From: Clostridia bacterium
GTDB lineage: Bacteria; Bacillota; Clostridia; TANB77; CAG-508
Length of the DNA: 64,000 nt
Assembly (NCBI GenBank): GCA_045643465.1
Contig: JAZUKV010000021.1
Span: 89,701 to 153,700, forward strand
Direction: 5' to 3'
The notes below the pieces were generated by a model. It saw only the letters and a program-made list of their open reading frames with translations. It did no database searches and was not told where the DNA came from. Of the stretch, positions 9,574 through 43,156 are shown piece after piece (positions within the stretch are counted from its first letter, which is position 1; every line of letters begins with the position of its first letter). The position numbers and the translations under genes were made by a program.

Positions 9574-12500
9574 TTGGCAAAGATTAAAATTCATGAAATA
9601 GCAAAAAAATTAAATCTAACCAGTAAAGATGTTTTGGAGAAAGCATTAGAATTAGGGATTGATGCTAAAAGCCATTTAAGTTCAATAGAGGATAATGAAG
9701 CAAAGATATTGGAACAAAAATTAACTGAAAAAACATCTAGCAAATCTAAAATTGAAAGCAATCAACAAGGAAAGAAAGAAATAAAAAAGGATAAGGAGAA
9801 AAAGAAAGAAAGTACTCCTGTGATTATAAGAAGAGAAGTTATTCTTTCAGAAGAAAATAATCAAGAAAAAGAAAATAAGAAAAATGAAAATAAACAAAAT
9901 ATAGGATTTGTTGAGAGAAAGAAAAATCAAAATTATAATATAGTTTATAGAAATAAACAGCAAAAACCTATGACTGTTAATGAATTATTTGGAATAAAAG
10001 ATAAGAAGAAAGAAGAAGAGCAAAAGAAACAAGAAGAAGAACGATTAAGAAAAGAAGAAGAAGCTAAGAAAATAGCAGAAGCTAAAAAAATAGCAGAACA
10101 AAATGAAAAAGAGCGAAAAGAGCTTGAAAACAATATTATAAAGGAGAAAACTGAAAAAACTGAAAATATAAATATGGATGCAACAGTTAAGAAAGAAATC
10201 AATAAAAGTGAAAATAGCTATGAAAGCAGAAAAAATTATAATAATTCTATGAATAATAGATATAATAATGATGGAAATAACAAATATAATAACGATAACA
10301 GAAATAGCAGATTTAATGCGGATAACAAAATTAATAATAGATATAATGCTGACGGCTCTAATAAATTTAATTCAGATCGAAACAATAAATATAATAACAA
10401 CGGGGAAAGAAAGTTTAATAATAGAGATGGAAATCAAGTAAATAATAATTATAAGAATAATAGATATAATAATGATGGAAATAACAGATTTAATAATAAT
10501 GGTAGATACAATAATAATCAAAATAAAGCTTTAGATGATAAGGGGATTGATAAAAATATCAAAAACATTATGTCTACAGAAATTGTAGAAAAAGAGTCTC
10601 AAAGGGATTATACAAGTAAATCTATAGATAAAGCAAAACAAAATAAATTTGAAGAAAATAAAGCTAATATCAATGCTAAAAAAGCAACTAAAAATAGAAA
10701 ACAAGATAGATTTTCTGAATTTGATGGTGGAAAATTAAAAGATTTAAAACAAGTAGATAAATTATCTCATATGTTTAATGAACAAGATGGTGGAATGCTT
10801 GATTATTATGATTTGACAACTGAAAGAGGAAAAAGAAATAAGAAAAAAATAAATAAAAATGATGAAGAAAGAAATAAACAAAAAATATTCCAATTAACAG
10901 AAATCACAATTCCAGAAAATATATCTGTTAAAGATTTAGCAATTGAGTTAAAGAAAACTAGTGGAGAAGTTATTACAAAATTAATGAGTCTAGGAATAAT
11001 GGCTACAATAAACAATGATTTAGATTTTGATACAGCTTATTTAGTAGCAAGTGAATTTGGAGTTAATGCAACAAAAAAAGAAGTTGTAAACGAAGAAGAT
11101 GTATTATTTGATGAATCAGAAGATAGAGATGAAGATTTATTACCAAGACCACCAGTTGTTGTTGTTATGGGTCACGTTGATCATGGTAAAACTTCTTTAC
11201 TTGATGCTATTAGAAAAACTAATGTTATTGAAGGTGAAGCAGGTGGAATTACACAACATATAGGTGCTTATAAAGTAAATGTAAATGGACGTGAAATTAC
11301 TTTCTTAGATACACCAGGACATGAAGCTTTTACAAGTATGAGAGCAAGGGGGGCTCAAATTACAGATATAGCTATATTAGTTGTTGCCGCTGATGATGGT
11401 GTTATGCCTCAAACAGTTGAAGCTATTAATCATGCTAAAGCAGCAGAAATTCCAATTATAGTTGCTGTTAATAAAATAGATTTACCAAATGCCAATATAG
11501 ATAAAATTAAACAAGATTTAATGCAATATGAATTAGTATCTGAAGAATGGGGAGGAGATACAATATTTGTTCCAATATCTGCTAAGAAAGGTTTAAATAT
11601 TAATAACTTATTAGAAATGGTATTATTAGTTGCAGATATGAAAGAGCTAAAAGCAAATCCTAACAAACAATCAAAAGGTGCTGTTATCGAAGCTAGATTA
11701 GATAAAGCTAAAGGTCCAATTGCATCAATACTTGTTCAACGTGGTACTTTAGATGTTGGTGATACAATTGTTGTTGGTACATCTATTGGTAGAATTAGAG
11801 CTATGAAAAATGATAGAGGTCAAAGCGTAAAAGAAGCTGGACCATCAACTCCTGTTGAAGTTATGGGATTGACAGAGCTACCAGAAGCTGGTGATACTTT
11901 CTATGAAGTTAAAAATGAAAAAATGGCTAAACATTTAATAGAAAAGAGAAAACTTCAAGAGAGAGAAAAATCATTAAATAATAATAGTGTTGTTACATTA
12001 AATAATTTATTTGAAAAAATGGCTAGTGATGATTTAAAACAATTAAACTTAATTGTAAAAGCAGATGTTCAAGGTTCTGCAGAAGCTATAAAACAATCAT
12101 TAGAGAAATTATCAAATGATGAAGTTAAGGTAAAAGTAATCCACTCTGTAGCTGGAGCTGTTAATGAATCAGATGTTCAACTTGCTAAAGCAGCAAAAGC
12201 TATAATCATAGCATTTAATGTTAGACCTGTTGGATCAGCTAAAGAAGTGGCTGAAAAAGAGGGAGTAGAAATAAAACAATATTCTATAATTTATAAAGCT
12301 TTAGAAGATGTTGAAGCTGCAATGAAAGGATTATTAGATCCTATATTTGAAGAAAAAGTTATAGGTAATGCATTAGTAAGACAGACATTCAAAGTTTCAA
12401 GTGTTGGAACAATTGCAGGATGTTTTGTAACAGATGGTAAAATTGAAAGAAATGCTGGAGTTAGAGTTATTCGTGAAGCTGTTGTTATTCATGAAGGTAA

Positions 12501-12642
12501 ACTTGCTTCATTAAAGAGATTTAAAGATGATGTTAAAGAAGTTACAAAAGGATATGAGTGTGGATGTCAAATTGAGAATTATAATGATCTTAAGGAAGAT
12601 GACGTTATAGAATTCTTTGTAATGGAAGAAGTTAAAAGATAA
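9574..12642 (+). CDS. infB: Translation initiation factor IF-2 with an expanded N-terminal region
   Basis: G-domain motifs [23 protein letters not shown]. The C-terminal IF-2 domains are present. TTG start follows GGGGTGA. Confidence 0.97.
10228..10524 (+). repeat. Asn-rich degenerate repeats inside infB
   Basis: About 100 codons of NN(R/K)(Y/F)NNDGNN-like units, for example [40 protein letters not shown]. Confidence 0.8.
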
Positions 12643-12715
12643 TTTGTGGTTGGGACAGGAGTTGATATAAAAATTATCTCCTGACCAATTAACAGTTAAA
12701 TAGAAAGGAAAGCGT

Positions 12716-13072
12716 ATGGCAAAAAACGAAACTAGGTTAAATAGAATAAATGAAGAGCTAAAAAAAGAGATTAGCCACGTACTAACATTTGAATTGAAAA
12801 ATCCAAATGTTACAGGTTTATTAAGTGTAACTAGAGCTAAGATAACACCTGATTTTAAATATGCAAAAGTTTACGTAAGTGTTTTAAATTCTAAAAATCT
12901 AGATAAAACTATGCAAGGATTGAAAGACTCAGCTGGTTTTATAAGAAGTCAAATAGCAAAAACAATTAATTTAAGAATAACACCAGAGCTAGTTTTTGAA
13001 TTAGATGATTCTGTTGAATACGGAATGAGAATTGATAATATATTAAAAGAAATTAAAGGTAAAAATAGTTAA
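12716..13072 (+). CDS. rbfA: Ribosome-binding factor A
   Basis: R..R..E.LK.EIS motif, size of 118 aa, and position after infB. Confidence 0.9.
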   Translation: MAKNETRLNRINEELKKEISHVLTFELKNPNVTGLLSVTRAKITPDFKYAKVYVSVLNSKNLDKTMQGLKDSAGFIRSQIAKTINLRITPELVFELDDSVEYGMRIDNILKEIKGKNS

Positions 13073-13087
13073 AAGAAAGAAGGATAC

Positions 13088-14047
13088 ATGGGAACTTTAG
13101 AGGAAATTTTTGAAAAGATTAAAAATGCTGAAACTATTGTTATTTTGACACATGAGAATCCTGACGGTGATGCAGTTGGAAGTAGTTTAGCATTGTATAA
13201 TGGATTAAAATTTTTTGGTAAAAATAAAGTAGATGTAATAATACCAGAATGTCCAAAAACATTTTTATTTTTGCCAGGAGCGGATGAGATAAAAAAAGAA
13301 TCTGATATCGAAAATTATGATTTAGCAATTGCTATTGATTGTTCAAATATAGAAATGCTAAATGGAGGAGATAGATATTTCGAAAATGCAGATAATACAG
13401 TTGTTATAGATCATCATAGCACTAACACAATGTATGGAGATCTTAATTTTGTAAATCCAGATGCTCCTGCTTGTGCAGAAGTTATGATTGTAGCATTAGA
13501 AAAGTTTGAAATGGAAATCGACAAGAGAATAGGTACATGTTTATTAGTAGGAATTATAACAGATACAGGTGGATTCAAATATCAAGGTGTTACAGCAGAA
13601 ACATTTGAGTTTGTAGCAGAGCTTCTAAATAAGGGGGTTAATGTTTCTGATACATATAGAAAAGTCTTACAAGTTAAAACAAAATCAGCATATGAGTTAG
13701 GAAGAATTGCTAATAATAGATTAGAATTTTTAGAGGATGGAAAAATAGCATTTACATATTTAACTTTAGAGGATTATGAGAATTATAATGCTAGTTATGG
13801 AGATCATGAAGGTATAGTTGATTTTGGTAGAGATGTAGAAGGTGTTGAAGTTTCAATTTTCATTAGAGAAATAAAAGGAAAAGGCTTAAAAGTTTCATTA
13901 AGATCTAACGAAAAAGTGGATGTTGATGATATTGCTTTATTATATGGAGGAGGAGGCCATCCAAAGGCAGCAGGTTTTTCTACAAATGATGATTTTGAAA
14001 CAATAAAATTTAAAATAATAAATGAAGTAAAACGAAATTTGGAATAA
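13088..14047 (+). CDS. nrnA: DHH/DHHA1 phosphoesterase (NrnA-like oligoribonuclease/pAp phosphatase)
   Basis: Motifs HENPDGDAVGS, DHH and GGGGHPKAAG. Confidence 0.8.
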   Translation: MGTLEEIFEKIKNAETIVILTHENPDGDAVGSSLALYNGLKFFGKNKVDVIIPECPKTFLFLPGADEIKKESDIENYDLAIAIDCSNIEMLNGGDRYFENADNTVVIDHHSTNTMYGDLNFVNPDAPACAEVMIVALEKFEMEIDKRIGTCLLVGIITDTGGFKYQGVTAETFEFVAELLNKGVNVSDTYRKVLQVKTKSAYELGRIANNRLEFLEDGKIAFTYLTLEDYENYNASYGDHEGIVDFGRDVEGVEVSIFIREIKGKGLKVSLRSNEKVDVDDIALLYGGGGHPKAAGFSTNDDFETIKFKIINEVKRNLE

Positions 14048-31977: not shown

Positions 31978-33225
31978 ATGTATAAAGAATTTGGAATAAA
32001 TGATGAAGTTTTAAAGTTATCAGAAAGAGTCGAAAAAGAGCTTTCTACAATTTTTGAAGATATTAATAAAAGATGTGAAGTAAATAGTTTAAAAGTATTA
32101 GAAGCTTTTAAAAAATATAATATTTCAGATATGCATTTTGGAAGTACTTCAGGATATGGGTATGGAGATGTTGGAAGAGATACAATTGAAAAAGTTTTTG
32201 CAGATATATTAGGAGCTGAAGATAGTGTAGTTAGAAGCCAATTTATTTCCGGGACACATGCTTTAACAGTAGCATTATTTGCGTTTTTAAGACCAAATGA
32301 CACATTACTAAGTATTTGTGGAAAACCTTATGATACTTTAGACGAGGTTATAGGAATTGTTGAAAATAAAAGCTCTTTGAAATCATTTGGTGTAAAATAC
32401 GAACAAATAGATTTAGTAGATGACGATTTTGATTATGATAAAATAATTGAAAGAGCAAGTAAAGGTAATATTAAAGTAATTGAAATACAACGCTCTAGAG
32501 GATATGCGTTAAGAAAAAGTATTACATTAGATAAAATGGAAAAAGCAATTAATGCGATAAGGTCTGTAAATAAAGATGTAATAATAATGGTAGATAATTG
32601 TTATGGAGAATTTGTTGATAGCAAAGAGCCTTTAGCAATTGGAGCAGATGTTATAGTTGGATCACTTATAAAAAATCTTGGAGGAGGAATAGCTCCTAAT
32701 GGTGCATATATTGCCGGTAAAAAAGAGCTAGTAGAGCTTGCAGCAGAAAGATTGACAGCCCCAGGACTTGGAAAAGAAGTTGGACCAACATTAGGAATAA
32801 ATAAGTCAATTTTGCAAGGTTTATTTATGGCTCCTTCAGTAGTAGCGAGTAGTTTAAAAACTGCTATTTATGCAAGCAAAATGTTAGAAGAGCTAGGATA
32901 TAAAGCAGTTCCAAGATTTAATGAGAAGAGATCAGACATAGTTCAAACAATTGAGTTTGGAGATAAGGAAAAGTTAATAAAATATTGTCAGGGCATTCAA
33001 ATGGGATCACCAGTTGATTCAAATTCAATACCTGAGCCATGGGATATGCCAGGATATACAGATCAAGTTATAATGGCTGCAGGTGCTTTTACACAGGGGT
33101 CATCAATTGAACTTTCTTGTGATGCACCAATAAGGCCACCATATTTAGCATTTATGCAAGGTGGACTAACTTTTGAATATGGAAAACTTGGAGTTATGAA
33201 AGCAATTTCAAATATAATTATGTAA
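31978..33225 (+). CDS. ynbB: PLP-dependent methionine gamma-lyase-family protein (YnbB / aluminium-resistance type)
   Basis: Motifs SGYGYGDVGRD, FISGTHAL and GSLIKNLGGGIAPNG, typical of this family as I recall it. Confidence 0.7.
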   Translation: MYKEFGINDEVLKLSERVEKELSTIFEDINKRCEVNSLKVLEAFKKYNISDMHFGSTSGYGYGDVGRDTIEKVFADILGAEDSVVRSQFISGTHALTVALFAFLRPNDTLLSICGKPYDTLDEVIGIVENKSSLKSFGVKYEQIDLVDDDFDYDKIIERASKGNIKVIEIQRSRGYALRKSITLDKMEKAINAIRSVNKDVIIMVDNCYGEFVDSKEPLAIGADVIVGSLIKNLGGGIAPNGAYIAGKKELVELAAERLTAPGLGKEVGPTLGINKSILQGLFMAPSVVASSLKTAIYASKMLEELGYKAVPRFNEKRSDIVQTIEFGDKEKLIKYCQGIQMGSPVDSNSIPEPWDMPGYTDQVIMAAGAFTQGSSIELSCDAPIRPPYLAFMQGGLTFEYGKLGVMKAISNIIM

Positions 33226-33291
33226 AAAATTTGAATGAAATGGATATTGATTAGATAGTATACATTTTTTAAATTCATATATAAATTGTAA

Positions 33292-33335
33292 TTGAGCTTC
33301 AATAATTTTTATAAGAAGCTCAATATTTGTATTTA
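33292..33335 (+). terminator. Stem-loop / terminator after ynbB
   Basis: ttgagcttc (33292-33300) pairs with gaagctcaa (33315-33323), followed by tatttgtattt. Confidence 0.5.
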
Positions 33336-33356
33336 TGAAAATAATAGGAGGAAAAA

Positions 33357-34664
33357 GTGAAAGTTGTAGTTATTGGTGGTGGACCAGCAGGAATATTAAG
33401 TGCTATTTCTGCTAGACAAAGTGGAGATGATGTAATACTTTTAGAAAAAAATGAAACATTAGGTAAAAAATTATTAATAACAGGAAAAGGAAGATGCAAT
33501 ATTACTAGTGGCATAGAAATTTCAAAATTTATTAATAATATTCCAGGAAATGGCAAGTTTTTATTTAGTGCATTTCAAAATTATACCAATGATGATATTA
33601 TTAAATTGTTAAATAAGCATGGTGTAAAAGTTAAAGAAGAGCGTGGAAATAGAATTTTTCCAGTAAGTGATAAATCAAAAGATGTATTAGATGCATTATA
33701 TAAAGAGCTAAGAGCGCTTAATGTAAAAGTTTATACTAAGACTAAAGTAGAAAAAATATATACAGAGCAAAGTTCAGTAAAAAAAGTAGAATATTCTTAT
33801 TTAGGTAATAAATATATATTAGATTGCGATAAAGTAATATTAGCAACCGGTGGAAAAAGTTATCCAACAACAGGCTCAACTGGAGATGGATATGAAATAG
33901 CAAAAAATCTTGGACATACAATAACTGATATAAGGCCTTCGCTTATACCAATTGTAGCTAATGATAATATCAATGTCGAAAGTGTTAATTTAAGAGAATT
34001 TTTAACATCAAAAGATCTTTGCAAAAGTTTACAAGGTTTAAGTTTAAGAAATGTAAAAATAAGCATAGTAGATTTAGAAAAAAATAAAGTTATCTATGAT
34101 GATTTTGGAGAGCTGTTATTTACTCATTTTGGGGTGTCAGGTCCAACAATTTTGAGTGCTACAGCACATATAATTAGATATAAAAATATCTCAGATTTAT
34201 TAAAAAATGGCAAAATAGTTTTAAAAATAGATTTGAAACCAGCTTTGGATAATGAAAAAATAGATACTAGAATATTAAGAGATTTCGAAAATGCTAAAAA
34301 TAAATTGTATAAAAATAGTTTAGATGAATTATTACCACAAAAATTAATAAGTCCAATAATTTCTTTATCTGGTATAAATCAAAATAAAATGGTAAATGAA
34401 ATATCAAAAAAGGAAAGAGCTGTATTAGTAAATTTATTAAAGAATTTTACAATTACAATTAGTGGATTTAGACCTGTGGAAGAAGCAATTATTACAGCTG
34501 GTGGAGTTAATATAAAAGAAATAAATCCTAAAACGATGGAATCAAAAATTATTAAGGGGCTATTTTTTGCAGGTGAAATTATAGATGTAGATGCTTATAC
34601 AGGTGGATTTAATTTACAAATTGCATATTCAACAGGTTATACAGCAGGATTAAATAATGAATAA
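33357..34664 (+). CDS. NAD(P)/FAD-dependent oxidoreductase, HI0933/BaiN-like
   Basis: VVIGGGPAG, GKGRCNIT, and the C-terminal GGFNLQ motif. GTG start follows AGGAGG. Confidence 0.8.
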   Translation: MKVVVIGGGPAGILSAISARQSGDDVILLEKNETLGKKLLITGKGRCNITSGIEISKFINNIPGNGKFLFSAFQNYTNDDIIKLLNKHGVKVKEERGNRIFPVSDKSKDVLDALYKELRALNVKVYTKTKVEKIYTEQSSVKKVEYSYLGNKYILDCDKVILATGGKSYPTTGSTGDGYEIAKNLGHTITDIRPSLIPIVANDNINVESVNLREFLTSKDLCKSLQGLSLRNVKISIVDLEKNKVIYDDFGELLFTHFGVSGPTILSATAHIIRYKNISDLLKNGKIVLKIDLKPALDNEKIDTRILRDFENAKNKLYKNSLDELLPQKLISPIISLSGINQNKMVNEISKKERAVLVNLLKNFTITISGFRPVEEAIITAGGVNIKEINPKTMESKIIKGLFFAGEIIDVDAYTGGFNLQIAYSTGYTAGLNNE

Positions 34665-34679
34665 TATATAGAGGTGGAT

Positions 34680-35330
34680 ATGAATATATTTAAAACAATT
34701 TTGGAAAAAGAAATTTCAGCAGAAATAGTTGAAAAAAAGTCTAAATTTATTGCTACTTTATTTTTTATAGAATCTGAAGAAGAAGCTGAAGAAAAAATTA
34801 AATGTATTAAAAAGAAATATTTTGATGCTAAGCATAATTGTTTTGCTTATATTGTTAATAATAATAATACGATAAATAAAAGATTTAGTGATGATGGAGA
34901 GCCAAGTGGAACAGCAGGAGCACCTATGTTAGAAATATTAGAAAAGCAAGGGCTAGGGAATGTTTTGGTAATAGTTACAAGATATTTTGGAGGAATATTA
35001 TTAGGTACAGGTGGACTTGTAAGGGCATACTCAGATGCTCTAAAAAAAGCTTTAGAAAAAGCCAGTATAGTGATTCAAGAGCATGGATATGAAATTAATG
35101 TAGAATTAAATTATTCAGATTTAGAGAATTTTAAATATTATTGTGGAAAAAATGGGATAAGAATATTAAATCAAGAATACTTAGAAACAGTAATTTGTAA
35201 AATCGAATTAAATGATGTAAAAAAATCTGAGTTAGAGCAACAGTTAAAAAATCAGAATGTATTAAGAATTATAAGCATCGACATTATTCGACAAAAGAAC
35301 ATATCAGTGTTGTCGAATAATGTAGATTAA
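34680..35330 (+). CDS. yigZ: YigZ/IMPACT-family protein (UPF0029)
   Basis: Motifs KSKFIA, AKHNCFAY, DDGEPSGTAG and VTRYFGGILLG. Confidence 0.8.
   Translation: MNIFKTILEKEISAEIVEKKSKFIATLFFIESEEEAEEKIKCIKKKYFDAKHNCFAYIVNNNNTINKRFSDDGEPSGTAGAPMLEILEKQGLGNVLVIVTRYFGGILLGTGGLVRAYSDALKKALEKASIVIQEHGYEINVELNYSDLENFKYYCGKNGIRILNQEYLETVICKIELNDVKKSELEQQLKNQNVLRIISIDIIRQKNISVLSNNVD
35282..35322. promoter_or_regulatory. Paired inverted Spo0A boxes
   Basis: cattaTTCGACAa (35282-35294) and tTGTCGAAtaatg (35310-35322) are perfect 13-nt inverted repeats 15 nt apart. Each contains the TGTCGAA 0A-box consensus. Confidence 0.55.
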
Positions 35331-35366
35331 TATCGCACGAAACCTTGCAAAATATGTGTTTTTATA

Positions 35367-35395
35367 TTGCAATACAATAAAAAAGAAAGTATAAT
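35367..35395 (+). promoter_or_regulatory. Sigma-A-type promoter candidate for spo0A
   Basis: TTGCAA (35367-35372), 17-nt spacer, TATAAT (35390-35395). Confidence 0.45.
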
Positions 35396-35429
35396 CTGGA
35401 ATGTAAAAAAGATATTAGGAGGTTTTAAT

Positions 35430-36254
35430 GTGAATAAAAAAATAACAGTATTAATTGCAGATGATAATAGTGAATTTTCTGCAACATTAGCTAGCTACGT
35501 AAGAGCTGAGGATGATTTAGAATTAATAGGAACCGCAAGAGACGGGATAGAAGCTTTTGATTTTATTAAAAATGCTGAACCAGATGTTGTACTGTTAGAT
35601 GTAATAATGCCAAGATTAGATGGATTAGGGGTTTTAGAAAAAATTAATGAAAGCGGTATGACAAAAATGCCTATGTGCATAATGTTATCTGCTGTAGGAC
35701 AGGATAAAATAACACAAAGGGCAATTAACTTAGGTGCCCAATATTATATAGTAAAACCTTTTGAAATAGATGTATTAATCAAAAGAATAAAAGATTTAAA
35801 ATATTTTCAACCCATGCCAGTGAATAATAGTAATTCATATGTTAGCAGAGAAATAAAAACAACGTACATAGAATTACCGGTAACTGAAATGAAAAACGAG
35901 GATAATTTAGAAGCTTTAGTAACAAATATAATTCATGAGATAGGAGTTCCAGCACATATTAAAGGATATCAATATTTAAGAGAAGCCATAATGATGGTAG
36001 TTACTAATATTGATATTATAAATCAAATAACAAAACAATTATATCCAGAAATAGCACATAAATATCACACAACACCATCTAGGGTTGAACGTGCAATTCG
36101 TCATGCGATAGAAGTTGCTTGGGGAAGAGGTCAACAAGATGTTGTAGAAACTATATTTGGTTATACAATTTCAGCTGCAAAAGGCAAACCAACAAACTCA
36201 GAATTTATAGCTATGATTGCTGATAAATTAAGATTAGAATTAAAAACAGCATAA
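35430..36254 (+). CDS. spo0A: Sporulation master regulator Spo0A
   Basis: Receiver domain ([22 protein letters not shown]) plus the diagnostic C-terminal domain ([32 protein letters not shown]). GTG start follows AGGAGG. Confidence 0.95.
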
Positions 36255-36258
36255 AAAA

Positions 36259-36299
36259 ATTCTTCTTTTACTCAATAGAGTAAAAGGAGAATTTTTTTT
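36259..36299 (+). terminator. Intrinsic terminator after spo0A
   Basis: 15-bp stem attcttcttttactc / gagtaaaaggagaat with loop aata and T8. Confidence 0.75.
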
Positions 36300-36319
36300 A
36301 TTTTATGAATAAAAAGTAT

Positions 36320-36435
36320 TGTAGATTAATGGGTAATAAAAAATGTAAAACTTTGTAAAATTTTGTATATTTCAAAAAATAATTTTAATGTATAAAATGT
36401 AAATATTTTCTTGATATTTTATGTATTGTAGTGTA
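36320..36435 (+). promoter_or_regulatory. Phased TGTA(A/T)A motif array
   Basis: Nine TGTA tetramers, starting at 36320, 36344, 36354, 36364, 36389, 36398, 36422, 36427 and 36432. Three consecutive 10-bp units sit at 36344-36373. Confidence 0.4.
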
Positions 36436-36439
36436 TTAT
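36411..36439 (+). promoter_or_regulatory. Promoter candidate for the 36486-43095 gene string
   Basis: TTGATA (36411-36416), 17-nt spacer, TATTAT (36434-36439). Confidence 0.45.
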
Positions 36440-36485
36440 ATAATAAGTTAAAATATTCAATACTGGGAATTGAAAGGAGAAAAAA

Positions 36486-36956
36486 ATGTATAAATTTAAG
36501 GGAAAATGTATAATAATAATTGCAACAGTAATATTATTATTAACATCTACAGTTTCTTTAGCAACAGAAAATAATATAATAGAAACGAATAATACTACAA
36601 CGACAAGTGTAAAAAAAGATACAACAAGTGAACAAAATTTAACTCAAGAAAGTACATCATCAAAGATAGTTCAAATAAGAGATGATCAATTAAAAACTAT
36701 AGAAGATTATAAAGCTAAATATGGATCTGATACATATGGATTAATAGCATATATATTACATGTAATTCAATGGTGGAGTATACCACTAGGACTATTATTT
36801 TTAGCAATCAGTGCAATTTTCCAATATGTAATTGGATTAAAGAGATTAGATTTAAGGGATAAAGGGTTTAATTCAATGATTGCGTTGGTAACAATAATTA
36901 TAATTTGCCAAGTGCTACCATTGATATTTGCTATTGTTGTAAAATCAAATGATTAA
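36486..36956 (+). CDS. Small secreted/membrane protein (signal peptide, Thr-rich linker, two C-terminal TM helices)
   Basis: N-terminal KGKCIIIIATVILLLTSTVSLA, then NNTTTTSVKKDTTSEQ, then hydrophobic stretches WWSIPLGLLFLAISAIFQYVIG and MIALVTIIIICQVLPLIFAIVV. Strong SD. Confidence 0.6.
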   Translation: MYKFKGKCIIIIATVILLLTSTVSLATENNIIETNNTTTTSVKKDTTSEQNLTQESTSSKIVQIRDDQLKTIEDYKAKYGSDTYGLIAYILHVIQWWSIPLGLLFLAISAIFQYVIGLKRLDLRDKGFNSMIALVTIIIICQVLPLIFAIVVKSND

Positions 36957-36975: not shown

Positions 36976-37833
36976 ATGAGAGTACTTTTTGCAGTAAGTA
37001 ATAATGAAAATAGCAATACAGATATTGTAGATGCTATATTAAATGAATATCAAAGAATGTATAAGAAGATAATATCATATAAAAGAGCTTTCTATTATGA
37101 TGCCATTATAAATGAGATAAAATCATCAAGAGACAATCAATATGACATAATTGTTATAAGTGAAGATCTAGAAAAAAAACCAGAAGATGGATATGATGCA
37201 GAAGATAGAAACTTATATAGGCATATGGATGAAATTACAGATGAAGCATATAAAGAAGATGGAACAGGGATACCTATCATTTTAATATGTAATGATCGAA
37301 GAAGTGAAAGGGATGCAATTATTCCACAATTATTTTCATTAGGAATGTATAATATTTTATATGGTAAAGATAGGACTATTCAAAATGTATGTGCTTTAAT
37401 TGAAAGACCAAGGAACAAGAAAAAAGCTAAAATGGTGTATAATATTAATCCAAAAGCGGCAGTATATGTAGCTGAAAATGCAGAGAAAAAAATAAGCGAT
37501 AAAGAATTATTGAGTATATTAAAATTTTTTAATTTAAATAAAGCAAATACAGAGAAATGTGTAAAAGGATTCTCAAAATTATATAAAGAATATAAAGAAG
37601 ATCAATTAAATTTTTTAATAGAAAATTTACCAATTGATATAAAAATAATTTTAGAAGAAAATTCAAAGGAATATTTAAGTGTGGCGAAAGAGCGTGTTAT
37701 AAGAAAATCAGAGCTAAATAATGCAAGCACTTTAGTAGAAAAAAATTTAACAAGAGATTTAAATAGTAGTGGCTCAGAAGTAATAATACCAGGACAACAA
37801 ACAAAGAGGAGCTTATTCGGAAAGAAAAACTAA
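36976..37833 (+). CDS. Receiver-like (pseudo-REC) domain protein, paralogous to the N-terminus of the next gene
   Basis: MRVLFAV...YDIIVISEDLE...IPIILICND...ERPRNKKKAKMVYNI aligns with MKVLFAI...YDRIVITDDFDE...IPIIYVGAN...NKPRTKQEAKEYYQI of the 37873 product. Confidence 0.55.
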   Translation: MRVLFAVSNNENSNTDIVDAILNEYQRMYKKIISYKRAFYYDAIINEIKSSRDNQYDIIVISEDLEKKPEDGYDAEDRNLYRHMDEITDEAYKEDGTGIPIILICNDRRSERDAIIPQLFSLGMYNILYGKDRTIQNVCALIERPRNKKKAKMVYNINPKAAVYVAENAEKKISDKELLSILKFFNLNKANTEKCVKGFSKLYKEYKEDQLNFLIENLPIDIKIILEENSKEYLSVAKERVIRKSELNNASTLVEKNLTRDLNSSGSEVIIPGQQTKRSLFGKKN

Positions 37834-37872: not shown

Positions 37873-40800
37873 ATGAAAGTGTTATTTGCAATAAAAGATA
37901 ATAACAAAGTTGTTGATAGTCTAGTACGTAAATATCAAAAAGATTTTAATAAAGATTTAAAATATAAGGAAGTAAAAAGTTTTGGAGCAATTACAAGTGA
38001 ATTGCAAAATAATAATTATGACAGAATCGTTATAACAGATGATTTTGATGAAAAATATAATAAGTTAGATGACAAAAATGAAAGAATAATAAAAAAACTT
38101 AAAAATATTGTTTCTGTAGCCAAAAATAAATCTAACAAAAATATTCCTATAATATACGTAGGTGCAAATAAAAAAATGATAAAATCATTATATGAAATGG
38201 AAATATATAATGGTGTTTTAGGAAATGAAAAAATAAAATCTAATATATATGAATTAATAAATAAACCAAGAACAAAGCAGGAAGCAAAAGAATATTATCA
38301 AATTAGCTCTGTAGATGGTAAAAAAAATGAAGGAAAAACAGTAAAAAAGGAAATGCCAAAAGAAGTAAATAAAAAAAGCGAAAATGTTAAAAAAGATACT
38401 ACTATTAAAGTAAAAAAACAAAAAATAAATCCAGAAAGTATAACAGAAAAAGAAATACAAGAGCCTAAGAAAAGAGGAAGAGGAAGACCTCGTAAAGAAG
38501 TAAAGGAAATTCCTGAAGAGGCAGTAGTTGAGGTAAAAAGAGGAAGAGGAAGACCTCGTAAAAATCCTATTGAAGTTGTTGAAGAAAATCAAAAAAATAA
38601 TAAAAAGACAGTAAAGGCTGTTAGCAAAAAAACAGAAAAGCCAATTAAATCTGAAAAAACGGTAAAAACTGAGCAAAAAGAAAATAAAGTAAAAAAAGAA
38701 GTCAATAAAAAAGAAAATGTAAAAAAAGAATTAAAAGCAACGGATTCTAAAAAAGGAAATTCAGCTAAAAAGAAAGTTTCTGATGAAAAATTAGTTAAAA
38801 AAGCAGATAGCTCAGATAAAAAGCAAAAAGTAAAAAGTGCAGCAGGAATAGCTGCAACAGCAGTATTGGGAGCTGAAATAGTAAAGAAATCAAATAAAAA
38901 GAAAGAGCTTGATGAAGAAGATGATGATGATTGGTTTGATTTTGATGAAATAAATGATAATTTAAAAGAAGACATAAGTGCAAAGAATGAAAAAGATGCT
39001 GAAAAAGGAAAATTTATTGATATTGATGATGATTTTGAAATAGAAGATGATGATAATGATTTCGAGATTGAACTAGATGATGATGAAAATGAAATTATTG
39101 ACGCTAACGATGATTTTGAATTAGAAGATGACGACGAAGAGCAAGAAATTGTTGATGATGACGATGATTTCGAGTTAGAAGATGACGACGAGGAAGAAGA
39201 AATTGTTAATGATGACTATGATTTCGAGTTAGAAGATGACGACGAGGAAGAAGAAATTGTTGATGATGACGATGATTTCGAAATAGAAGATGACGACGAG
39301 GAAGAAGAAATTGTTGATGATGACGATGATTTCGAGTTAGAAGATGATGATGATATCGAATTAGATGATGACGATGAGATAGAGCTTGATGAAGAAGATG
39401 ATGATATCGAATTAGATGATGACGATGAGATAGAGCTTGATGAAGAAGATGATGATATCGAATTAGATGATGACGATGAGATTGAGCTTGATGAAGAAGA
39501 TGATGATATCGAATTAGATGATGACGATGAGATTGAGCTTGATGAAGAGGATGATGATATCGAGTTAGATGATGACGATGAGATAGAGCTTGATGAAGAA
39601 GATGATGACATCGAGTTAGATGATGACGATGAAATTGAGCTTGATGAAGAGGATGATGATATCGAGTTAGATGATGATAATAAAGAAGACGACGATATTC
39701 TAAATCTAGATGACGAAGAAGAAGACGACGATATTCTAAATCTAGATGACGAAGAAGATGACGACGATATGCTAAATCTAGATGACGAAGAAGAAGACGA
39801 TGATATTCTAAATCTAGATGATGACGAAGAAGAAGACGATGATATTCTAAATCTAGATGATGACGAAGAAGAAAACGAAGAAGAAGAAATCGAACTAGAT
39901 GATGATAATGAAGAAGATGATGATATTCTAAATCTAGATGAAGATGACGATAATTTAAATTTTGATGATGAGCAAGATGAAGAGCTAAAAATAGATGATA
40001 CTGTATCAGGAATTAAAAATAAAAATTATATTCCTAATTATGATATATCAAAGCAATTAAATGAAATTGATGATGATGTTAAGATAGAAGATAAAAATGA
40101 AATAAGTATTATTAATAAAACAGAAGATATTGCTCTTACTGAAACAAATTTAAAAATTAATGAAGGTCAAAGAATAATTGCTTTTGTCGGAGCACATGGA
40201 AATGGAACATCATTTATTATAAATAATATGGCTCAATTGTTATCAGAGCAAGGAATAAAAACAGCAATATTAGATTTAACAAAAAATAAAAATTCATATT
40301 ATATTTATACTGAAAATGAAGAAAATTTAAGATCAATAGCTTATTCTTGCTTTGAAAAATTAGAGAGCGGAATATCAGATGGGATAAAAGTTTCAAAGAA
40401 TTTAACAGTATATACATCATTACCAACAACAGATAATGATATAGAAAATAAAGAAATGGCAATTAATACTTTACTAAACAACTATTCTTTGATATTATTA
40501 GATTGCGATTTTGATACAGATTTTGAATATTTTAAATTAGCACAAGAGCTTTACTTAGTACAATCATTTGATATTTTAACAATTCAACCAATAACATCAT
40601 TTGTAAAAAAATTAAAAATGAACAGTATAGTAAATGAAGAAAAATTTAAAATAATAATAAATAAAAGCTTATATGTAAGTGGAATAAATGAGCGAACAAT
40701 AGTTGCTGCAATGTCAGTATATAATTCTCCAGACACAACATACCAATTAGATTTATTTGATAGAAATAAAGTTGAATATTTTGAGATTCCTTTTGAAGAA

Positions 40801-40938
40801 AAAAATTATTCTAAATATTTGGATGAATTGGTAAAATGTAAATTGACATTAAGAGGATATACAAAAGGCTTATTAAATAGTTTTAATAAATTAGCTAAAT
40901 CAATATATCCAATAAATAAAAAGAAAAAATCAAAATAA
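37873..40938 (+). CDS. 1021-aa multidomain protein: pseudo-REC, Lys-rich region with 2 AT-hooks, ~360-aa polyacidic repeats, ParA/MinD/CpaE-like domain with degenerate Walker A
   Basis: The ORF is uninterrupted with a good SD (ACGGAGGT). It contains KKRGRGRPRK and KRGRGRPRK, D/E repeats, and a C-terminal domain RIIAFVGAHGNGTSF...ILDLT...LILLDCD...YLVQSFD in the order expected for a MinD/ParA fold. Confidence 0.7.
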   Translation: MKVLFAIKDNNKVVDSLVRKYQKDFNKDLKYKEVKSFGAITSELQNNNYDRIVITDDFDEKYNKLDDKNERIIKKLKNIVSVAKNKSNKNIPIIYVGANKKMIKSLYEMEIYNGVLGNEKIKSNIYELINKPRTKQEAKEYYQISSVDGKKNEGKTVKKEMPKEVNKKSENVKKDTTIKVKKQKINPESITEKEIQEPKKRGRGRPRKEVKEIPEEAVVEVKRGRGRPRKNPIEVVEENQKNNKKTVKAVSKKTEKPIKSEKTVKTEQKENKVKKEVNKKENVKKELKATDSKKGNSAKKKVSDEKLVKKADSSDKKQKVKSAAGIAATAVLGAEIVKKSNKKKELDEEDDDDWFDFDEINDNLKEDISAKNEKDAEKGKFIDIDDDFEIEDDDNDFEIELDDDENEIIDANDDFELEDDDEEQEIVDDDDDFELEDDDEEEEIVNDDYDFELEDDDEEEEIVDDDDDFEIEDDDEEEEIVDDDDDFELEDDDDIELDDDDEIELDEEDDDIELDDDDEIELDEEDDDIELDDDDEIELDEEDDDIELDDDDEIELDEEDDDIELDDDDEIELDEEDDDIELDDDDEIELDEEDDDIELDDDNKEDDDILNLDDEEEDDDILNLDDEEDDDDMLNLDDEEEDDDILNLDDDEEEDDDILNLDDDEEENEEEEIELDDDNEEDDDILNLDEDDDNLNFDDEQDEELKIDDTVSGIKNKNYIPNYDISKQLNEIDDDVKIEDKNEISIINKTEDIALTETNLKINEGQRIIAFVGAHGNGTSFIINNMAQLLSEQGIKTAILDLTKNKNSYYIYTENEENLRSIAYSCFEKLESGISDGIKVSKNLTVYTSLPTTDNDIENKEMAINTLLNNYSLILLDCDFDTDFEYFKLAQELYLVQSFDILTIQPITSFVKKLKMNSIVNEEKFKIIINKSLYVSGINERTIVAAMSVYNSPDTTYQLDLFDRNKVEYFEIPFEEKNYSKYLDELVKCKLTLRGYTKGLLNSFNKLAKSIYPINKKKKSK
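38470..38562 (+). repeat. Exact 27-nt direct repeat encoding the two AT-hooks
   Basis: aaaagaggaagaggaagacctcgtaaa occurs at 38470-38496 and again at 38536-38562. Confidence 0.85.
39100..39354 (+). repeat. In-frame 54-bp tandem repeat (~4.7 copies; DDDDDFELEDDDEEEEIV)
   Basis: Read directly from the DNA and its translation. Confidence 0.85.
39355..39678 (+). repeat. In-frame 51-bp tandem repeat (6 copies plus partial; IELDDDDEIELDEEDDD)
   Basis: Unit starts (atc) at 39355, 39406 and 39457 are exactly 51 nt apart. Copies are protein-identical and differ at synonymous sites. Confidence 0.9.
39685..39972 (+). repeat. In-frame 36-39-bp tandem repeat (~6 copies; EDDDILNLDDEE)
   Basis: Read directly from the DNA and its translation. 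Confidence 0.85.
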
Positions 40939-40956: not shown

Positions 40957-42078
40957 GTGAATAATTTGAATACTTCTATGATTGTATTAATATTTATACT
41001 TATATTATTATTAATAGTATTAGCCGTAATGGCGTTAAAGATATATACAATGGGCTTAAATTGTAAAAAATTAAAAAGTACAAGTCAAAGAGTAAATGCT
41101 TTAAGTATATTACAAGATTTTTTAGAAATAATAGGTAATAGTTCAGAGAATACACAAGAAAAGATGAATAAAATAAATGAAACATTAATTGAAAAATATG
41201 AAATTAAATATTCTACGATAGTTGTATTTGATGGAACAAATTATAATGTAGAAGCTTCAAATGTAAGTGAAAAACATTGGAAAATGTTTAAAGAGCTTCA
41301 TACACAGGAAATATTTATGGAGAGCATTAAAAATGCTACTCCTAAATATGTTACTGTAAAAAAGGAAGAAACATTACCATACTTAGATATGGAATTTGAA
41401 AGAGCAAAATCTGCAATATTCTTTCCATTATATGTAGACAATGTATATATAGGTTATTGGCTAATAGAAGGTAGCCAACCTCATGAATTTGATGCAAATG
41501 ATACAACTTTATTAAATGTAATAAAAAATAATATAACATATGCAATTAGAATTATTAAATCACAAAGAGTATTAGAAAATTTAGCAAGAATAGATACCAG
41601 AACAGGTTTATACACATATGAATATTTATTAGGAAGTGCAAGAAAAGTATTTGACAAATATCCAACATCTATAGTATCATTAATAAAAATTACAAATCTA
41701 GCTCAGATTGAAGAAAAAATAAGCAAAAAAGTAGCAGATGCGGTATTGAACAAATTTGTAAGCATAATAAAATCAAATTTGTCAACAGAGTATCTATTTG
41801 TTAAATATTCTGAAAACGAATATGCAATTGTTTTTTCCGGAATTGATATAGATGGAGTTGGTAATTTTTTGGAAGACCTAAAAAACACTATAGAAAAAAC
41901 AAAAATCAAAATTATTGGTGCACAAAAGGAAAGTATGAATGGACTTGCAATAGCTAGCAAACTAAATATTTATTTAACATCATATTACAAAGAAACATCA
42001 ATAGAAAGTGTTTTAAGTACATTAGGAAAATATCTAAATAATGCTAATTCAGAAGAAAGTGATATTACATGTGTATAA
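40957..42078 (+). CDS. Membrane-anchored GAF-like / degenerate GGDEF-domain protein
   Basis: N-terminal TM helix (MIVLIFILILLLIVLAVMAL). GGDEF-domain entry motif RIDTRTGLYTYEYL. The active-site position reads YSENEYAIVF instead of GG(D/E)EF. Confidence 0.65.
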   Translation: MNNLNTSMIVLIFILILLLIVLAVMALKIYTMGLNCKKLKSTSQRVNALSILQDFLEIIGNSSENTQEKMNKINETLIEKYEIKYSTIVVFDGTNYNVEASNVSEKHWKMFKELHTQEIFMESIKNATPKYVTVKKEETLPYLDMEFERAKSAIFFPLYVDNVYIGYWLIEGSQPHEFDANDTTLLNVIKNNITYAIRIIKSQRVLENLARIDTRTGLYTYEYLLGSARKVFDKYPTSIVSLIKITNLAQIEEKISKKVADAVLNKFVSIIKSNLSTEYLFVKYSENEYAIVFSGIDIDGVGNFLEDLKNTIEKTKIKIIGAQKESMNGLAIASKLNIYLTSYYKETSIESVLSTLGKYLNNANSEESDITCV

Positions 42079-42089
42079 GGAGGTAATGT

Positions 42090-42344
42090 ATGGCAACAGA
42101 TCAAACAGTAAGTTTTCACGTAGAAAGAGAAAAAAATATTAAGACAAAAGAAATTTTGAAAAATGTTTATCAAGCCTTGGAAGAAAAAGGATATAATCCT
42201 ATAAATCAAATAGTAGGATATATATTATCTGGAGATCCAACTTATATAACAAGTCATAACAATGCTCGAAATTTAATAAGAGAAGTAGAAAGAGATGAAT
42301 TATTAGAAATAATGGTTAAATCATATATAGGAATGGATGAATAA
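42090..42344 (+). CDS. ireB: IreB/UPF0297 family protein
   Basis: Motifs [27 protein letters not shown]. Conserved position upstream of ruvX. Confidence 0.85.
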
Positions 42345-42788
42345 ATGAGGATATTAGGTATTGATTATGGAGATGCTAGAGTAGGAGTATCTATGACAGA
42401 TCCGTTAGGAATTACAGCGCAAGGAATAGAAACCATTCATCATAAGGGCAATGACAAAATTGTTTTAAAAAGATTAGAAGAGCTTATAAATCAATACGAA
42501 ATTAAAACAATTGTTATAGGTATGCCAATAAATATGAATGGAACTAAGACCGAAAGAGCAGAAGTTACAGAAAAATTTATACATAAGTTAAAATGTAAAT
42601 TTGGTAAAATAAACATAGAAAGAATAGACGAAAGACTAACAACGGTAGAAGCACATAAAACTATGAATTATTTAAATGTAAATAAGTTTAAGAAAAGAGG
42701 CATAGTAGATACAATATCTGCAGTCTATATTCTTGAAACCTATATAAGAAAAGCAAAAATAGGAGAGGAGAAAAATAATAATGAGTAA
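42345..42788 (+). CDS. ruvX: Holliday-junction resolvase-like nuclease RuvX (YqgF)
   Basis: MRILGIDYGDARVGV, IVIGMPINMNG and DERLTT motifs. Confidence 0.9.
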   Translation: MRILGIDYGDARVGVSMTDPLGITAQGIETIHHKGNDKIVLKRLEELINQYEIKTIVIGMPINMNGTKTERAEVTEKFIHKLKCKFGKINIERIDERLTTVEAHKTMNYLNVNKFKKRGIVDTISAVYILETYIRKAKIGEEKNNNE

Positions 42789-43095
42789 AGATTTTTTTGG
42801 AGAAGAGGAAGTTGATAACAAAGATTTAGTATTGGATGATGACAATTTATTTGTATTAAATGATGAAGATGGAAACGAAATCAAATTCGAGTTTTTAGAT
42901 TTAATAGAATTAGAAAACGAAAACTATGTTGTTTTATATCCAGTTGAAAATGATAGTGAAGAAGTTGTTATTTTACGAGTTCAAGAAACAGAAGGCGAAT
43001 TAGATGAATATTTAAGTGTTGACGAAAAAACACTACAAGCAGTATATGCAATATTTAAAGAAAAATTCAAAGATGTTTATGATTTCCAAGATTAA
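42781..43095 (+). CDS. DUF1292 family protein (YrzB-like)
   Basis: Acidic 104-aa protein with motifs such as DEDGNEIKFEFLDLIELENENYVVL. Conserved position after ruvX. Confidence 0.8.
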   Translation: MSKDFFGEEEVDNKDLVLDDDNLFVLNDEDGNEIKFEFLDLIELENENYVVLYPVENDSEEVVILRVQETEGELDEYLSVDEKTLQAVYAIFKEKFKDVYDFQD

Positions 43096-43110: not shown

Positions 43111-43156
43111 GCACAAAAATATTTGATGTTTTAGTTAAATATTTTTGTGCTTTATT
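43111..43156 (+). terminator. Intrinsic terminator
   Basis: 14-bp stem gcacaaaaatattt / aaatatttttgtgc followed by tttatt. Confidence 0.75.

Follow-up and report, generated by a model that had tools for sequence, protein, structure and literature searches.

The 64,000-nucleotide (nt) stretch of DNA analysed here (the window), from a Clostridia bacterium of the TANB77 lineage, encodes on its plus strand a giant open reading frame (ORF; 37873..40938) whose 1021-residue product belongs to a family of constant layout, with a receiver-fold module at the N-terminus, a hypervariable linker of great length and, at the C-terminus, a MinD/ParA-fold domain without the Walker lysine. We hold the anatomy of this protein and its assignment to the family with high confidence. 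The individual folds are already known, as is the idea of a ParA/MinD-class hub that lacks the Walker lysine (TadZ, BcsQ). New are the family, with a P-loop variant of its own, the fusion to AT-hooks of the HMGA type, the hypervariable giant linker and, beside ireB-ruvX, the constant association with a small membrane protein. The detailed comparison covers 66 full-length genomic homologues of 746-1702 amino acids, all starting MKVLFAV..., and 80 fetched loci together with the distant loci L081 and L082.

Terminal domains and family of the giant protein

Structure prediction places the C-terminal domain (residues 766-1021; 40168..40938) in the SIMIBI class. The AlphaFold model of residues 750-1021 reached a predicted local distance difference test score (pLDDT) of 90 and a predicted template modelling (TM) score of 0.89. 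Its top 50 Foldseek matches in the PDB are all SIMIBI-class proteins (E about 1e-8 to 2e-6, TM-score about 0.6-0.7), and the matches include ParA (5tvk, 3ea0), MinD (4v02, 4v03), FleN/FlhG, Soj, NifH, HypB, McdA and, at rank 34 with a TM-score of 0.49, TadZ (3fkq). A preliminary description of this DNA, made from its letters alone, had read residues 765-1010 as MinD/ParA-like, and both the model and the fold matches bear this out, including the relation to P-loop proteins. By sequence, the sole PDB match, obtained with the single sequence and with the profile, is the tyrosine kinase (BY-kinase) CapB (E 0.0015). Pfam CbiA was matched below threshold in 16 of 22 members (best E 1.2e-4) and MipZ at E 0.05-0.07, no curated ParA/MinD model exceeded its threshold for the domain and NCBIfam returned no match to it. 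When the protein was compared with Pfam and NCBIfam, both entire and domain by domain, AT_hook was the only model above threshold. The 64-kb window holds no canonical MinD/ParA gene for comparison.

The domain keeps the motif order of MinD, ParA (Soj) and FlhG-FleN, its best structural matches, with a P-loop, a switch I Asp, a Walker B Asp and an hhhhN[KR] strand in succession. It differs from them in that both lysines of KGGxGK[ST] are absent, that the second switch I Asp is Thr throughout the family, and that no MinC/MinE or ParB partner genes are present. The P-loop reads GAHGNGTS (residues 773-780; 40189..40212), and in the HMMER alignment to CapB Thr779 falls on the Walker lysine, with no signature lysine. 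The deviant Walker A motif xKGGxGK[ST], with its signature and catalytic lysines, was found neither in the giant ORF nor in the family, whose consensus is G-[TA]-x-[KGNR]-x-G-[TN]-[ST]-F. The Walker position is Thr or Asn, never Lys, in every examined member, and the 66 homologues almost always read FVGTSKNGTSF. The alignments to CapB and within the family thus uphold the earlier claim that Thr stands in for the catalytic lysine and that the signature lysine is missing. The earlier label of a lysine-less domain is accurate for the P-loop but not for the domain as a whole, which contains 27 lysines in 256 residues.

Beyond the P-loop, the AILDLT segment of strand 2 and switch I (40264..40281) carries the invariant D801, with Thr803 at the position expected for the second Asp of ParA/MinD; in model numbering they correspond to columns D52 and T54 of A2/A4, both invariant. 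The Walker B-like segment LILLDCD (40489..40509) carries the invariant D877 and D879 and lies on the Walker B of CapB in the alignment. Despite the absent Walker lysine, the remainder of the nucleotide pocket (G773, G778, S780, F781, D801, T803, D877, D879 and N930-K931) does not vary within the family, even in its distant members, a pattern that speaks for retention of a ligand site. The chain ends in TLNKMKxxY in TANB77-type members and in a basic-hydrophobic KKGLFG or KKFFG tail in distant ones. The KKGLFG form resembles the membrane-targeting tail of MinD. The earlier statement that ParA/MinD ATPases need the P-loop lysine is too strong if taken to mean that the domain is dead, given the invariant pocket and the example of BcsQ. 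In BcsQ, a SIMIBI protein of cellulose secretion, Thr replaces the cis-acting Walker lysine as it does in the giant protein. BcsQ forms a stable sandwich dimer that binds ATP tightly and hydrolyses it weakly, and the small membrane protein BcsF recruits it (PMC7840130).

The N-terminal domain (REC', residues 1-145; 37873..38307) is a degenerate receiver fold. The AlphaFold model of residues 1-151 (pLDDT 88.8) shows the (beta-alpha)5 fold, and Foldseek matched it to CheY-type receivers, including the CpaE N-domains 4myr and 4n0p and the pseudo-receiver FrzS, albeit weakly (E about 1e-3, TM-score about 0.55). The receiver-like nature first suggested for this region is therefore sustained at the level of the fold, whereas by sequence REC' matched neither Pfam Response_reg nor any other receiver model. 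As read from the strand ends of the model, the phospho-acceptor pocket of receivers is not preserved: strand 1 is followed by KDNN, which offers no acidic pair, strand 3 by D56-D57, strand 4 by GAN, and strand 5 by VLG, with no lysine. REC' also carries a five-residue deletion.

Directly upstream, u285 (36976..37833) encodes a stand-alone REC-like and helical N-terminal module whose REC-like part (residues 1-158) shares 29% identity with the N-terminus of the giant protein. In most loci the u285-type module is itself the N-terminus of a single long protein, and u285 retains, at the end of the fold that bears the active site, the D-R-R and G-x-D-R residues that are invariant in the family. We conclude from the alignment and the comparison of loci that u285 is a paralogue, which became a separate gene when the N-terminal module was duplicated in the window's clade, and that REC' is the relaxed, degenerate duplicate of a u285-type module. 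The helical sub-domain is gone from the giant-ORF copy in this genome, and L005 has it on both copies. A profile of the N-terminal module found no match in the PDB, and a search with it for other domain contexts returned only fragments of the same family.

Relatives of the C-terminal domain occur in at least 582 species-level genomes, all of them metagenome-assembled genomes (MAGs) of TANB77-type uncultured gut Clostridia, and the family as a whole spans both this type and related lineages. An exhaustive profile search across 1.84 billion representatives yielded only 420 clusters at E <= 1e-3, and the family appears to be closed, not grading into ordinary ParA/MinD proteins. All source names, those of the distant-member clusters included, are 'hypothetical protein' or blank, yet this is a conserved, single-copy gene of a core neighbourhood in all these species. 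Members include Clostridium sp. CAG:273 and Ca. Merdicola faecigallinarum, the latter assigned to order TANB77, family CAG-508 (PMC13106387). Uncultured but prevalent in the gut, the order TANB77 has reduced genomes, and a link to the response to immunotherapy has been drawn (PMC11680825).

The giant ORF begins at an ATG with a GGAGG Shine-Dalgarno sequence 9 nt 5' of it, and the coordinates first assigned to the ORF, to both AT-hooks and to the P-loop proved exact on re-checking. Intact ORFs of the same plan in independently assembled MAGs (L005, 1266 residues; L006, 1051; L007, 1149) and the ribosome-binding site show that the ORF is genuine and no assembly artefact, while its number of repeats stays uncertain. 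Two partial proteins from other assemblies are 100% identical to the giant ORF at the C-terminus and have fewer repeat units, so the exact length of the giant ORF is uncertain. Many MAG contigs also break off within the acidic or low-complexity linker (L001-L004, L008, L014, L015, L018, L032, L076), and together these observations make short-read collapse or strain variation in the repeat region likely. No database record of the exact protein was found by look-up. In a large protein collection the family is represented almost solely by fragments of at most 540 residues (P0001-P0120), many of them called from internal Met codons in the repeats. Most database entries are truncated because assemblies break in the repeats of the linker, and the family is systematically mis-called in public data; in practical terms, the locus is one where short-read MAGs systematically break and gene calls go wrong. 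At L044:8578-10954 two overlapping ORFs of 332 and 463 residues take the place of the single long protein, owing to a frameshift or to faulty assembly in the linker. On the minus strand of the window, three antisense ORFs of 128-140 residues (38254-39611) run across the basic and acidic tracts; they are not genes but arise incidentally from the repetitive GAT/GAA/AAA coding strand.

Basic and acidic segments of the linker

The linker of the giant protein opens with a lysine-rich segment (residues 146-345; 38308..38907; 28.5% Lys, net charge +33) that holds two AT-hooks, KKRGRGRPRK (residues 199-208; 38467..38496) and KRGRGRPRK (residues 222-230; 38536..38562), whose starts lie 22 residues apart, as in most relatives. 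We take the KRGRGRPRK sequence to be identical to the first hook of human HMGA1. Pfam AT_hook recognized the two stretches at 18.6 bits against a cut-off of 17.4. Chance does not account for these hooks, because a protein of this size is expected to contain about 0.001 RGRP motifs and none of 20,000 shuffles of the protein contained two; they are also the only RGRP motifs among the window's long ORFs. At least two hooks of the form [KR]x-RGRP-[KRP]K, usually about 22 residues apart, were found in 65 of the 66 full-length relatives. This conservation, with the Pfam score, confirms the AT-hooks noted earlier. Distant members keep the end domains without the hooks, so the hooks are not ancestral to the family but an acquisition of the very AT-rich TANB77-type subfamily. 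DNA binding by this segment is plausible by analogy with known AT-hook proteins. At aa 323-338 (38839-38886), exactly at the junction between the lysine-rich and polyacidic stretches, lies the short uncharged hydrophobic patch SAAGIAATAVLGAEIV.

A literature search for the combination of AT-hook and ParA in bacteria found nothing relevant. The closest parallels are HMGA and CarD, which likewise have multiple RGRP hooks flanked by K/R beside a highly acidic region, a region that in the present family is acidic only in some lineages. Here, on the other hand, the hooks lie inside a 1021-residue multidomain protein, the acidic region spans about 360 residues rather than about 15-40, and the giant ORF has no CarD_CdnL_TRCF domain. 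CarD of Myxococcus and its Stigmatella orthologue have been described as the only prokaryotic HMGA-like proteins (PMC2919716). The giant-ORF family would bring HMGA-type AT-hooks into a bacterial structural protein and, if the reading is correct, would be the first large bacterial family beyond the myxobacterial CarD to pair HMGA-like AT-hooks with an acidic region.

The polyacidic tract (residues 346-705; 38908..39987) is 68% D/E and about 22% I/L/F/V, with a net charge of -238, and is built of units such as DDDFELEDD, DDDEIELDEEDDDIELD and DDDILNLDDEE. At the DNA level, Tandem Repeats Finder resolves three adjacent arrays (39046..39941): a 54-nt unit repeated 5.6 times (39046-39347), a 51-nt unit repeated 7.2 times at 94% identity (39316-39677) and a 36-nt unit repeated about seven times (39668-39941). 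Six of the 51-nt units in the window differ from one another solely by synonymous changes. The DDDILNLD unit is common to the giant ORF and to L005, though the C-terminal domain of L005 is only 64% identical.

Among the 66 relatives the linker ranges from about 190 to 1150 residues in length and from 11 to 56% in D/E content. Strong acidic expansions mark the window's clade and have arisen separately in L010, L037, L043 and L056, and the linkers of distant members (P0263-P0292, L081:8001-10379, L082:8001-10145) consist of E/R/K/Q-rich repeats of helical type or are S/G/Y-rich (P0290). The acidic tract is therefore a later, lineage-specific tandem-repeat expansion that was not ancestral to the family. 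Hypervariability between constant end domains favours a linker that is chiefly an extended spacer. The acidic-hydrophobic units that recur in it, which are IELDD, FELEDD and ILNLDD in the window's clade and LPGFED or VNLFDL in other members, suggest an array of short motifs more than pure filler. Such natural variation on fixed end domains (polyacid, charged-helix, S/G/Y-rich and N/Q-rich linkers) provides a system to probe disordered linkers in positioning proteins.

Possible functions

The reading we favour, and hold tentatively at somewhat under an even chance, is that the giant protein serves as a nucleoid-to-envelope tether or positional hub, its C-terminal domain holding nucleotide, its hooks on the chromosome and its linker providing the spacing. 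The proposal draws on the invariant pocket, the paired hooks, a membrane partner (u156, encoded in the same transcription unit), the spacer-like linker and four precedents, namely BcsQ, TadZ, HMGA2 and HubP. The C-terminal domain would behave like TadZ or BcsQ, binding nucleotide, hydrolysing it slowly or not at all and acting not as a cycling ATPase but as a stable module for dimerization and docking; it would dock at the membrane, probably via the conserved cytoplasmic loop of u156. Through its paired AT-hooks the protein would be anchored in the minor groove of a chromosome very rich in AT (about 26% GC), with the linker as an extended spacer between the two ends of the protein. Carrying many acidic-hydrophobic motifs, the self-repelling polyacid may recruit basic clients in the manner of HubP, whose acidic repeats bind ParA1, ParC and FlhG (PMC8789113). 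Alternatively, it may fold back on the lysine-rich AT-hook segment and damp DNA binding, much as the acidic tail of HMGA2 binds that protein's own AT-hooks (PMC4482583). The roles first offered for the tract, as autoinhibitor, DNA mimic or spacer, are thus plausible by analogy. HubP/FimV resembles the present protein in offering a very acidic, Asp/Glu-rich repeat platform for ParA/MinD-type proteins, a likeness of analogy and not of homology; in HubP, the acidic platform and its ParA-like clients are separate proteins, and HubP has LysM, transmembrane and TPR parts.

Several observations weigh against this proposal. Nucleotide binding, dimerization, DNA binding and membrane docking are all inferred, and the family has no cultured host. 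The AT-hooks are absent from distant family members, so chromosome tethering is not an ancestral or universal function. REC' is without the family-invariant DRR and GxDR residues, and the window's clade also lacks the fourth-position lysine of the family P-loop (GAHGNGTS, GAHNSGNS, GARRNGTS) and either of the conserved C-terminal tails; this clade may be the most degenerate branch of the family. Finally, the repeat copy number varies between assemblies.

The strongest rival is a fully dead scaffold, a pseudo-ATPase in the strict sense, in which the C-terminal domain binds no nucleotide and serves solely as a fold for protein-protein interaction. The loss of both the signature and the catalytic lysine fits such a protein, as do the P-loops without any lysine in the window's clade, the replacement of the second switch I Asp by Thr803 and the failure of every curated ParA/MinD model to reach threshold. 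On the other hand, the residues that line the pocket (the P-loop glycines, S780, D801, D877/D879 and N930-K931) are the most conserved of the family, unlike those of a decayed site, and BcsQ, with the same K-to-T change, binds ATP tightly. We regard a dead scaffold as somewhat unlikely. The looser suggestion of the preliminary description, a pseudo-ATPase scaffold held on AT-rich DNA, is plausible by analogy.

A second rival concerns the acidic tract alone, which could have arisen by neutral repeat slippage, or partly as a product of assembly, in a tolerant linker whose only task is spacing. The three tandem arrays, one of them at 94% identity, the copy numbers that differ between assemblies, the frequent contig breaks and the enormous variation of the linker in length and composition across the family are what slippage would leave behind. 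Yet the acidic-hydrophobic units are kept in frame, the differences between units are all synonymous, the DDDILNLD unit recurs in the relative with a C-terminal domain only 64% identical, and acidic expansions have appeared in several separate lineages (L010, L037, L043, L056), which makes neutrality distinctly unlikely.

It is more doubtful still that the protein is a working ATPase of the ParA/MinD type, cycling on the nucleoid and so placing a cargo or the division site, with a relocated lysine (the K of G-T-S-K-N-G-T-S) or a residue supplied by a partner. Most members do keep a lysine three residues upstream of the canonical position, D801 and D877 are kept, the AT-hooks would supply a nucleoid matrix, and the KKGLFG ending of distant members recalls the MinD tail. 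However, the relocated lysine is not essential, because G, N or R stands in its place in the window's clade (the three P-loops given above). Moreover, binding through AT-hooks would be constitutive and not gated by ATP, a poor fit to a ParA-type ratchet, and the module contains no gene for a ParB, MinE or McdB-like activator.

Very improbable, finally, is a TadZ/CpaE orthologue acting as a localization hub for a Tad/Flp pilus with u156 as a pilin-like protein: the layout agrees (a pseudo-receiver and a ParA-like domain with a lysine-less Walker A), Foldseek matched the CpaE N-domains (4myr, 4n0p) and TadZ (3fkq), and u156 has a signal peptide and hydrophobic helices, but no tadA/cpaF, tadBC, cpaB or prepilin peptidase gene lies nearby in more than 80 loci, the K/R-G-G of the TadZ motif is absent, TadZ is merely the 34th fold match (TM-score 0.49), and TANB77 genomes have a separate Tad cluster with its own short TadZ-like and CpaE-like proteins (PMC11680825). 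The gene neighbourhood and this separate cluster rule out a Tad or pilus locus. As a precedent TadZ remains instructive, since it is regarded as a hub and not as an ATPase that cycles, and its motif, K/RGGxGxS/T, is likewise joined to an atypical receiver domain (bioRxiv 10.64898/2026.07.08.737194). The succession of atypical receiver and ParA-like domain is matched at the level of the fold, with a linker of 600 residues in between here. TadZ itself has no long disordered linker, AT-hooks or acidic tract and shows no sequence-level match, its motif starts K/R-G-G, and its gene stands in tad loci next to TadA, where the giant-ORF gene is never found.

The giant protein enlarges the small set of ParA/MinD-class proteins without the Walker lysine, such as TadZ and BcsQ. 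To our knowledge, almost nothing has been established about the cell biology of TANB77. A bolder form of the proposal, which we consider unlikely, is that the protein and its membrane partner make up an unrecognized chromosome-to-envelope tethering or positioning system of uncultured gut Clostridia, in which a non-cycling, nucleotide-holding dimer would be the anchor, AT-hooks would replace ATP-gated DNA binding, and a fast-evolving polyelectrolyte linker would set the distance or drive condensates.

Gene neighbourhood

The giant ORF lies in what is predicted to be one transcription unit, running from u156 to DUF1292 and bounded by terminators. Its upstream limit is the intrinsic terminator of spo0A (36254..36297, plus strand), a 20-bp stem followed by a T run; spo0A was assigned by TIGR02875 (E 4e-112). 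The next terminator-like hairpin on the plus strand after 36297 lies at 43111..43150, and the intergenic gaps from u156 through DUF1292 measure 0-39 nt. All genes of the unit are read from the plus strand.

The first of them, u156 (36486..36956), encodes a small membrane protein with a signal peptide and two transmembrane helices, between which lies a conserved cytoplasmic loop, GxKRLDxRDKGF, that reads GLKRLDLRDKGF in u156. The protein has no Pfam or NCBIfam match. A homologous small protein is encoded directly upstream of the long-protein gene in 68 of the 80 loci and also in the distant L081 and L082.

The gene downstream of the giant ORF (40957..42078) encodes a membrane-anchored protein with a conserved central sensor-like domain, weakly GAF-like, and a dead GGDEF domain (Pfam GGDEF, E 1.3e-6). 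Its GGDEF motif reads SENEY here and MGPKF in most relatives, and there is no RxxD; these features rule out an active cyclase or an I-site receptor. The gene is present in all 80 TANB77-type loci and absent from L081 and L082. After it come ireB, ruvX and DUF1292 (42090..43095), which belong to this unit and are likewise conserved.

The order u156, long protein, GGDEF-like protein, ireB, ruvX and DUF1292 holds in essentially all 80 loci, and in L081 and L082 it is small membrane protein, long protein, ireB, ruvX and DUF1292. Because these distant loci keep the pair without the GGDEF-like gene, the conserved core is a two-gene module of small membrane protein and long protein, upstream of ireB-ruvX.

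Parts of this arrangement recall the system of BcsQ, BcsE and BcsF, in which BcsQ has a degenerate REC*-GGDEF* protein and a small membrane protein as partners (PMC7840130); these parallel the pseudo-REC domain, the dead-GGDEF neighbour and u156. There are also differences. Neither the window segment nor the loci contain bcs genes, those for BcsR, BcsE and BcsA included, and BcsQ keeps R10-G-G. In addition, REC is here fused to the SIMIBI domain, with GGDEF on a separate membrane protein that lacks RxxD and does not occur in the distant loci.

An AT-rich leader (36300..36485, plus strand) separates u156 from the terminator of spo0A and has a promoter-like TTGATA-17-TATTAT at 36411-36439. Nine TGTA motifs within 141 nt (36320-36435) are the highest density in the window, and three of them are spaced about 10 nt apart (36344, 36354, 36364). 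This array had been put forward as a target for binding by the giant protein. The cluster is not conserved adjoining the gene, 5' of the module, in other genomes, with mild enrichment only in the closest clade, and Rfam has no match in the leader (36300..36485). A conserved operator is thereby ruled out.

The adjacency to spo0A is specific to the window's clade. In the window, a block of genes for a methionine gamma-lyase-like protein, an HI0933-like flavoprotein, UPF0029 and spo0A (31978-36254) stands upstream of the module. The same block is found downstream of DUF1292 in L081 (11550-15685), and L082 has only its first two genes there (11405-13908). The position of the block reflects local rearrangement around a conserved module.

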